Of a stretch of DNA of 64,000 nucleotides, positions 53,613-53,672 are shown in pieces. The position numbers were made by a program, and so were the translations under genes. Under the pieces are notes generated by a model that was not told where the DNA came from, did not search any database, and worked only from the letters and a program-made list of their open reading frames with translations. The DNA lies in the NCBI RefSeq assembly GCF_044324875.1, contig NZ_CP172185.1; one strand, given 5' to 3'. The stretch is from Escherichia coli. GTDB lineage: Bacteria; Pseudomonadota; Gammaproteobacteria; Enterobacterales; Enterobacteriaceae. Numbering within the stretch: position 1 is the stretch's first letter; each line of letters starts with the position of its first letter.

Positions 53613-53628
53613 CTGTATAAAACCACAG
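53613..53628. promoter_or_regulatory. LexA (SOS) box upstream of polB
   Basis: CTGTATAAAACCACAG matches the CTGT-N8-ACAG LexA consensus. Confidence 0.75.
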
Positions 53629-53638
53629 CCAATCAAAC

Positions 53639-53672
53639 GAAACCAGGCTATAATCAAGCCTGGTTTTTTATT
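53639..53672 (+). terminator. Hairpin plus T-run after araD, within the polB leader
   Basis: aaccaggct ataatca agcctggtt followed by tttttt. Confidence 0.55.

Follow-up and report, generated by a model that had tools for sequence, protein, structure and literature searches.

In the 64,000-nucleotide stretch of Escherichia coli DNA analyzed here (the window), the LexA-repressed promoter of polB is very probably nested in the intrinsic terminator of the araBAD operon, and the hairpin between araD and polB is in all likelihood not an attenuator in the polB leader. The original prediction had placed this hairpin, on condition that the polB promoter overlaps the LexA box, in the polB leader, where it could attenuate read-through from araBAD. 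That placement does not hold: the published start site of polB falls in the 3′ arm of the hairpin, and the 5′ arm, at −21 to −12, is not transcribed from it. Retention of the hairpin across the Enterobacteriaceae follows araD as the upstream neighbor. The features on which the argument turns are collected in Table 1.

Table 1. Positions in the window of the features at the araD-polB junction, with the basis for each
Feature	Position	Strand	Basis and remarks
araD (L-ribulose-5-phosphate 4-epimerase)	52914..53609	+	Stop codon TAA at 53607-53609
LexA (SOS) box CTGTATAAAACCACAG	53613..53628	.	Sequence, CTG-N10-CAG; 20-mer at 53611-53630; −48 to −33 relative to the mapped polB start
Putative −35 CAGCCA of polB	53626..53631	+	Geometry from the −10 and the start site; 3/6 to TTGACA; 17-bp spacer
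Hairpin 5′ arm AAACCAGGCT	53640..53649	+	Folding; downstream half of the polB promoter spacer, −21 to −12
polB −10 hexamer TATAAT (K-12: TATACT)	53649..53654	+	Sequence; within the hairpin loop; ends 7 nt before the start site
Hairpin 3′ arm AGCCTGGTTT	53657..53666	+	Folding
polB transcription start site (+1)	53661	+	Kim et al. 2012 (PMC3415461), supplement; inside the hairpin 3′ arm
polB 5′ UTR, 23 nt	53661..53683	+	Start site and sequence
T-run TTTTTTATT	53664..53672	+	Predicted U-tract of the araD terminator; also +4 to +12 of the polB mRNA
polB (DNA polymerase II)	53684..56035	+	GTG start

RESULTS

The junction and its K-12 counterpart

Both flanking genes are full-length matches to NCBIfam equivalog models. 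araD matches TIGR00760 (E = 3e-135), the match starting at residue 11 of the open reading frame 52884-53609, and the name is also given by annotation in matching E. coli genomes; polB matches NF004420 (1791 bits, residues 1 to 783 of 783). The 74-bp spacer between them has the same length in K-12 MG1655, where the orthologous locus is the LexA-regulated promoter of polB (dinA) at about 65854-65781 on the minus strand of NC_000913. The two sets of coordinates are related, free of gaps, by K-12 = 65780 + (53684 − window). Four substitutions separate the two spacers, one in the −10 hexamer, two directly behind the T-run and one 3 nt ahead of the GTG, and the LexA box, both hairpin arms and the GTG start are identical. 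The arrangement is thus that of the already known K-12 polB (dinA) promoter region with minor substitutions, and a suggestion made from the letters alone, that it was probably the known one and should be compared with K-12, proved correct.

The araD-polB region aligns in about 5,400 complete E. coli genomes. For window positions 53300 to 54000, the best identity among 5,426 complete E. coli genomes was 98.3%, and most were at 95 to 99%. Judged by these alignments, the DNA is probably that of a divergent E. coli lineage, or of some close relative within Escherichia, and not that of K-12.

The LexA box

Three nucleotides (TGA) separate the araD stop codon from the LexA box, which begins at the fourth. 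The box had originally been placed 4 bp after the stop; the box itself stands, and the distance needs correcting accordingly. The motif is that of the polB (dinA) SOS box: Thomassen et al. (2010, PMC3009722) give the exact sequence in front of polB, both as a UV-induced gene and as a UV-induced transcript, and the box was found in 79 of 79 species. polB is a standard gene of the SOS regulon (PMC6590174).

The window holds 10 copies of the pattern CTGT-N9-CAG where 6.45 would be expected, so that the box is not significant by sequence alone. Scored with a matrix derived from Table 4 of Thomassen et al. 2010 (PMC3009722), which supplied 17 published E. coli SOS boxes other than this one, in the orientation in which they are listed, it reached 11.5 bits, against 12.4 to 28.9 bits for the comparison boxes in a leave-one-out test. 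Of 100 shuffled windows, 90 attained at least this score; the small training set penalizes three bases that it does not contain. Symmetrizing the matrix doubled this penalty and gave 6.4 bits. Set beside the gammaproteobacterial SOS consensus TACTG(TA)5CAGTA, the polB box shares CTG-N10-CAG and has a perfect left half, CTGTAT, whereas its right half, CCACAGCC, is poor, and its score lies under those of all 17 comparison boxes. These features fit the known status of polB as a weakly bound SOS gene with a high heterology index. Like other SOS boxes, it overlaps a core promoter element. We accept the box as real on the grounds of the literature, its presence in every species scored and its fixed distance from the −10 beside a poorly conserved spacer.

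The box variant follows its context. Among loci L007 to L081, those adjacent to araD carry CTGTATAAAACCACAG followed by CC or CA, about 70 to 75 nt upstream of polB; those with another upstream gene mostly carry CTGTACAAAA..(A/T)CAGTA, in which the right half-site is nearer the consensus.

A hairpin with the anatomy of an intrinsic terminator

The stem comprises 10 to 11 bp with five G-C pairs, begins 31 nt after the araD stop and encloses a 7-nt loop, ATAATCA; a further G.U pair (53639/53667) may form at its base. The first three T's of the T6 run (53664-53669), which is followed by ATT, belong to the base of the stem, where they pair with the upstream AAA. A 37-nt piece containing the hairpin folds with −16.2 kcal/mol, against −3.8 ± 2.1 in shuffles (z = −6.0), and perfect stems of at least 9 bp with a T-rich tail occur at three sites in the 64-kb window, compared with 0.03 in dinucleotide shuffles. 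In the size of the stem-loop, the U-tract 3′ of the stem and the co-directional gene end upstream, the structure corresponds to an intrinsic terminator. The predicted hairpin with a T6 run between the box and the polB start was thus found where it had been placed (stem 53640-53666, GTG at 53684), and its description as terminator-like and directly after araD is supported by the folding energy and by a retention that follows upstream araD.

The other two such stems in the window, at 8764-8789 and 36189-36218, are each flanked by A-tracts and T-tracts, which gives them the look of bidirectional terminators. Our terminator scan missed the plus-strand site at the araD-polB junction because the first three T's pair with the upstream AAA; the minus-strand copy passes. 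Despite this, a functional terminator on the antisense strand was rejected, as no minus-strand gene converges on the site. Dcm sites lie in both arms (CCAGG at 53643-53647 and CCTGG at 53659-53663). The bias of very-short-patch repair might slow decay of the arms; it cannot account for a loss of the 3′ arm only, as described below.

In Rfam, the hairpin gave only a chance-level match, to C0465 (19 bits against a gathering score of 40 bits, E = 0.9). The 3′-end map of Adams (2021) holds no araD 3′ end, as expected without arabinose, and only an internal 3′ end for polB. The SMRT-Cappable-seq supplements mention neither polB nor araD, and literature text searches for the araD terminator, the hairpin sequence and read-through from araBAD to polB returned nothing relevant. 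Lee et al. in 1986 (Gene 47:231) reportedly described an araBAD intrinsic terminator. The hairpin in the window, with its GC-rich stem, 7-nt loop and U-tract, is predicted here from its anatomy to be such a terminator; what we add is the comparative tie of the hairpin to upstream araD.

The polB promoter overlies the hairpin

Kim et al. (2012) mapped transcription starts by TEX-enriched 5′-RACE sequencing in mid-log cells in glucose minimal medium, retaining only ends seen in both replicates (PMC3415461). Their E. coli polB start, NC_000913 65803 on the minus strand with a 5′ UTR of 23 nt, corresponds to position 53661 of the window, and the 50 nt upstream of it are given as GACTGTATAAAACCACAGCC...GGCTATACTCAAGCCT. 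In Klebsiella pneumoniae, the polB start (NC_009648 69499, minus strand, 24-nt UTR) follows ...AAACCAGGCTATAATCAGGCCT and is the equivalent base (PMC3415461). Reads were few, 2 and 4 in the two species against a data set mean of about 108 (PMC3415461), as would be expected of a LexA-repressed gene. Since araBAD is silent in glucose, these 5′ ends cannot be processed ara transcripts. Unusually, the base at +1 in E. coli is a T, and the true start may be the adjacent G at 53662.

On tiling arrays with a 7-nt spacing of intergenic probes, the 100 nt preceding the UV-induced polB transcript carry the SOS motif from position 54 onward (Thomassen et al. 2010, PMC3009722). With the offset calibrated on that paper's gene-anchored table, the boundary of the UV-induced transcript falls at about 53658, some 46 to 47 nt past the start of the motif.

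The promoter has sigma-70-type geometry: the −10 agrees with the consensus at 6/6 positions and the −35 at 3/6, the spacer is 17 bp, and transcription starts 7 nt past the −10. The first three nucleotides of the presumed −35 are the CAG of the LexA box, and it is through this element that the polB promoter overlaps the box, as had been supposed. A promoter consensus scan reported no promoter here, the −35 being too weak for its rule. From its sequence, GGA at 53673-53675 may be a weak Shine-Dalgarno-like site of polB.

The mapped start decides what becomes of the hairpin in polB mRNA, which begins UGGUUUUUUAUUGG... and includes no more of the stem than its final 6 nt. Because polB transcripts start in the 3′ arm, they lack the 5′ arm; the hairpin therefore cannot form in them, and they would be unattenuated. 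Folded from the start site, the polB RNA was unremarkable in structure (z = +0.57), with the first 12 nt unpaired.

For the hairpin to attenuate polB from within a leader, after the manner of frd/ampC, polB would have to start upstream of it, for example from a −10 at TATAAA in the LexA box. There is indeed such a −10-like TATAAA (53616-53621), and the hairpin and T-run do lie between it and the GTG. However, this TATAAA has no usable −35 before it, the starts mapped in E. coli and K. pneumoniae both lie within the 3′ arm, and the UV-induced transcript boundary is close to them, at about 53658. In addition, the fixed 20-bp gap joins the box and the TATAAT of the loop as one promoter, and the hairpin has been lost in many species in which polB, the box and the −10 persist. 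The mapping of polB starts had been proposed as the check on the leader idea, and the published starts, in neither species upstream of the hairpin, contradict it. We regard attenuation in the polB leader as very unlikely.

One can also envision a mixture, in which the main polB promoter is as described and read-through from araBAD, or transcription from a minor promoter in araD, is partly attenuated, coupling polB to arabinose. As a matter of general knowledge, intrinsic terminators are seldom 100% efficient. Kim et al. also assigned to polB a start at K-12 65946, window 53518, which is inside araD (PMC3415461). That start has 2 reads only, however, and the −10-like GATATT of K-12 is GATTTT in the window. 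The literature text searches yielded no read-through data, and we saw no sign of selection for partial termination; we think such a mixture improbable. The reading preferred here remains that of a single LexA-repressed polB promoter lying over the araBAD terminator.

Two further observations concern polB expression. The −10 is TATAAT in the window and TATACT in K-12, which may matter for promoter strength or for sigma-70/sigma-S preference; the K-12 GCTATACT presumably resembles a sigma-S-type −10. According to a review (PMC6590174, citing Dapa et al. 2017), full polB expression also needs RpoS. At the other end of the gene, Kim et al. (2012) mapped a 21-read hepA/rapA start in the 3′ end of polB, at about 55875 (K-12 63588), with a 324-nt UTR (PMC3415461).

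The hairpin follows araD, and the box and −10 follow polB

The 5′ regions of polB were taken from 80 other Enterobacteriaceae species, and 79 sequences, the window included, were scored after anchoring on the −10. A CTG-N10-CAG box and a TATAAT or TATACT were found in all 79 species; TATAAT is the majority −10 (68/79), and the gap from box to −10 is exactly 20 bp in 76 of the 79. The columns of the box and the block AACCAGG(C/T)TATAAT are 90 to 99% conserved, whereas the 11 nt that separate the box from the 5′ arm reach only 30 to 50%.

Upstream neighbors were classed by Pfam and tblastn, nearest-ORF calls having been noisy. araD lies within 130 bp at 43 loci and 130 to 400 bp away, with inserted sequence between, at another 14. 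At 8 loci, including those of Salmonella and several Citrobacter, an opposite-strand gene with a DUF4751 domain, divergent from polB, stands between araD and polB; a co-directional DUF218 gene is the neighbor at 7 loci, and 7 have other neighbors. All inserts are located on the upstream side of the LexA box; the module from box to GTG is never split.

The araD-polB junction is an insertion hotspot in the Enterobacteriaceae, taking DUF4751 genes (L007, L009-L011, L013, L018, L021 and L023), DUF218 genes (L014, L022, L028, L041, L044, L051 and L066) or REP-like inserts (L031, L035, L043, L045 and others).

Retention of the hairpin tracks the neighbor. Hairpins with araD upstream have a median energy of −14 kcal/mol, and those with the divergent DUF4751 gene one of −6.7 (Mann-Whitney p = 1e-5, kinship ignored). 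With a cutoff of −9 kcal/mol for a hairpin that is kept, it is kept at 55 of 57 loci with araD upstream versus 8 of 22 otherwise (Fisher p = 2e-8, again ignoring kinship), and the 3′ arm has decayed at 14 of the 22 loci with another neighbor. In 16 species, the hairpin has been lost while polB, the box and the −10 stay. The pattern has exceptions: the hairpin has been lost from four of the seven DUF218 loci despite a co-directional neighbor, and Pluralibacter gergoviae (L068) has none though araD is adjacent.

The decayed 3′ arms differ by lineage, CGTGAATTT in Salmonella, GACACATAA in C. sedlakii, GCCGGGCTT in a Citrobacter isolate (L021) and CGCTTATTC in Pseudocitrobacter, which points to several independent decays. 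Covariation in the stem was uninformative because the core is nearly invariant, with 86.4% of cells paired versus 85.6% in shuffles; three pairs are changed on both sides. A single clean compensatory change, from A-U to G-C, was found in L076, and complementary flanks extend the stem in L049 and L081.

Since the 3′ arm and T-run are lost without araD, they appear dispensable for polB and go with araD. On this comparison of sequences, we take the hairpin to be tied to araD and not to polB, which fits the prediction of an araBAD terminator and not that of an element of the polB leader.

The 5′ arm is conserved without its partner

The two arms do not share the same fate. In the 16 species without the hairpin, the 5′ arm AAACCAGGC (53640-53648, −21 to −13) is 88% identical to the consensus, against 57% for the 3′ arm and 34% for the neutral spacer. 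The loci with this conservation of the 5′ arm in the absence of a hairpin are L009, L010, L018, L033, L037, L039, L041, L044, L051 and others. Conservation of the 5′ arm without a partner seems to reflect a role in the polB promoter that is independent of pairing. Of the 63 loci in which the hairpin is retained, 62 have C at position −13, whereas those that have lost it divide into 8 with C and 8 with T; only this top base seems to require pairing.

A perfect 10-bp inverted repeat centered on the −10, with a 5′ arm conserved where the hairpin cannot form, could also be read as a DNA operator for a dimeric regulator bracketing the −10 of polB, and not as an RNA terminator at all. The half-sites of a dimer should go together, however, and here the 3′ arm alone decays (57% versus 88% identity). 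The T-run and the place right after a stop codon suit a terminator, and retention follows a co-directional upstream araD. We know of no regulator with such an inverted-repeat site. Given the decay of a single half-site, a dimer operator acting at the DNA level was rejected; we consider it extremely improbable.

Returning to the terminator, we can imagine, with some hesitation, that the 5′ arm AAACCAGG (−21 to −14) is itself a functional promoter-proximal element, such as a regulator site or a determinant of sigma selectivity, and that the araD terminator was built by a 3′ arm evolving complementarity to this older element. As a by-product, arabinose-driven transcription terminating within the polB promoter could modulate the expression of Pol II. 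We consider this proposal unlikely.

DISCUSSION

We propose that a single stretch of DNA serves two transcripts. A polymerase arriving from araD would transcribe both arms, the stem would form, and the transcript would be released in the U-tract, so that the hairpin and its T-run act as the Rho-independent terminator of the araBAD operon; termination at this hairpin is suggested by its anatomy and context. The polB promoter would overlie the same bases, with the 5′ arm in its 17-bp spacer, the −10 in the loop and the +1 in the 3′ arm. LexA bound at −48 to −33 would cover the −35 and block binding of polymerase, as the geometry and general knowledge of LexA lead us to expect. Upon DNA damage, RecA-stimulated cleavage of LexA would then derepress polB.

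There is a likeness here to frd/ampC, where, according to Grundstrom and Jaurin in 1982, the terminator of the E. coli frdABCD operon is said to double as the ampC attenuator. In both cases, the terminator hairpin of an upstream operon overlaps the control region of the gene that follows. The two differ in where the promoter lies: for ampC it is upstream, which puts the hairpin in the leader, whereas for polB the −10 is in the loop and the +1 in the 3′ arm. In the open-access literature, we did not find an explicit discussion of this nesting of terminator and promoter; the primary papers of 1986 to 1990 were outside that scope, and we do not claim the arrangement to be unreported.

The significance of these findings is modest. 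They settle the annotation, in that the hairpin belongs to araD rather than to the polB leader. The conservation of the 5′ arm offers a minor lead for dissecting the regulation of polB by LexA and RpoS. More generally, a terminator and the core promoter of the next gene can occupy the same bases, and a transcription start can sit within a terminator stem. The decay of the 3′ arm once araD is no longer the upstream neighbor is a small natural experiment in the Enterobacteriaceae.
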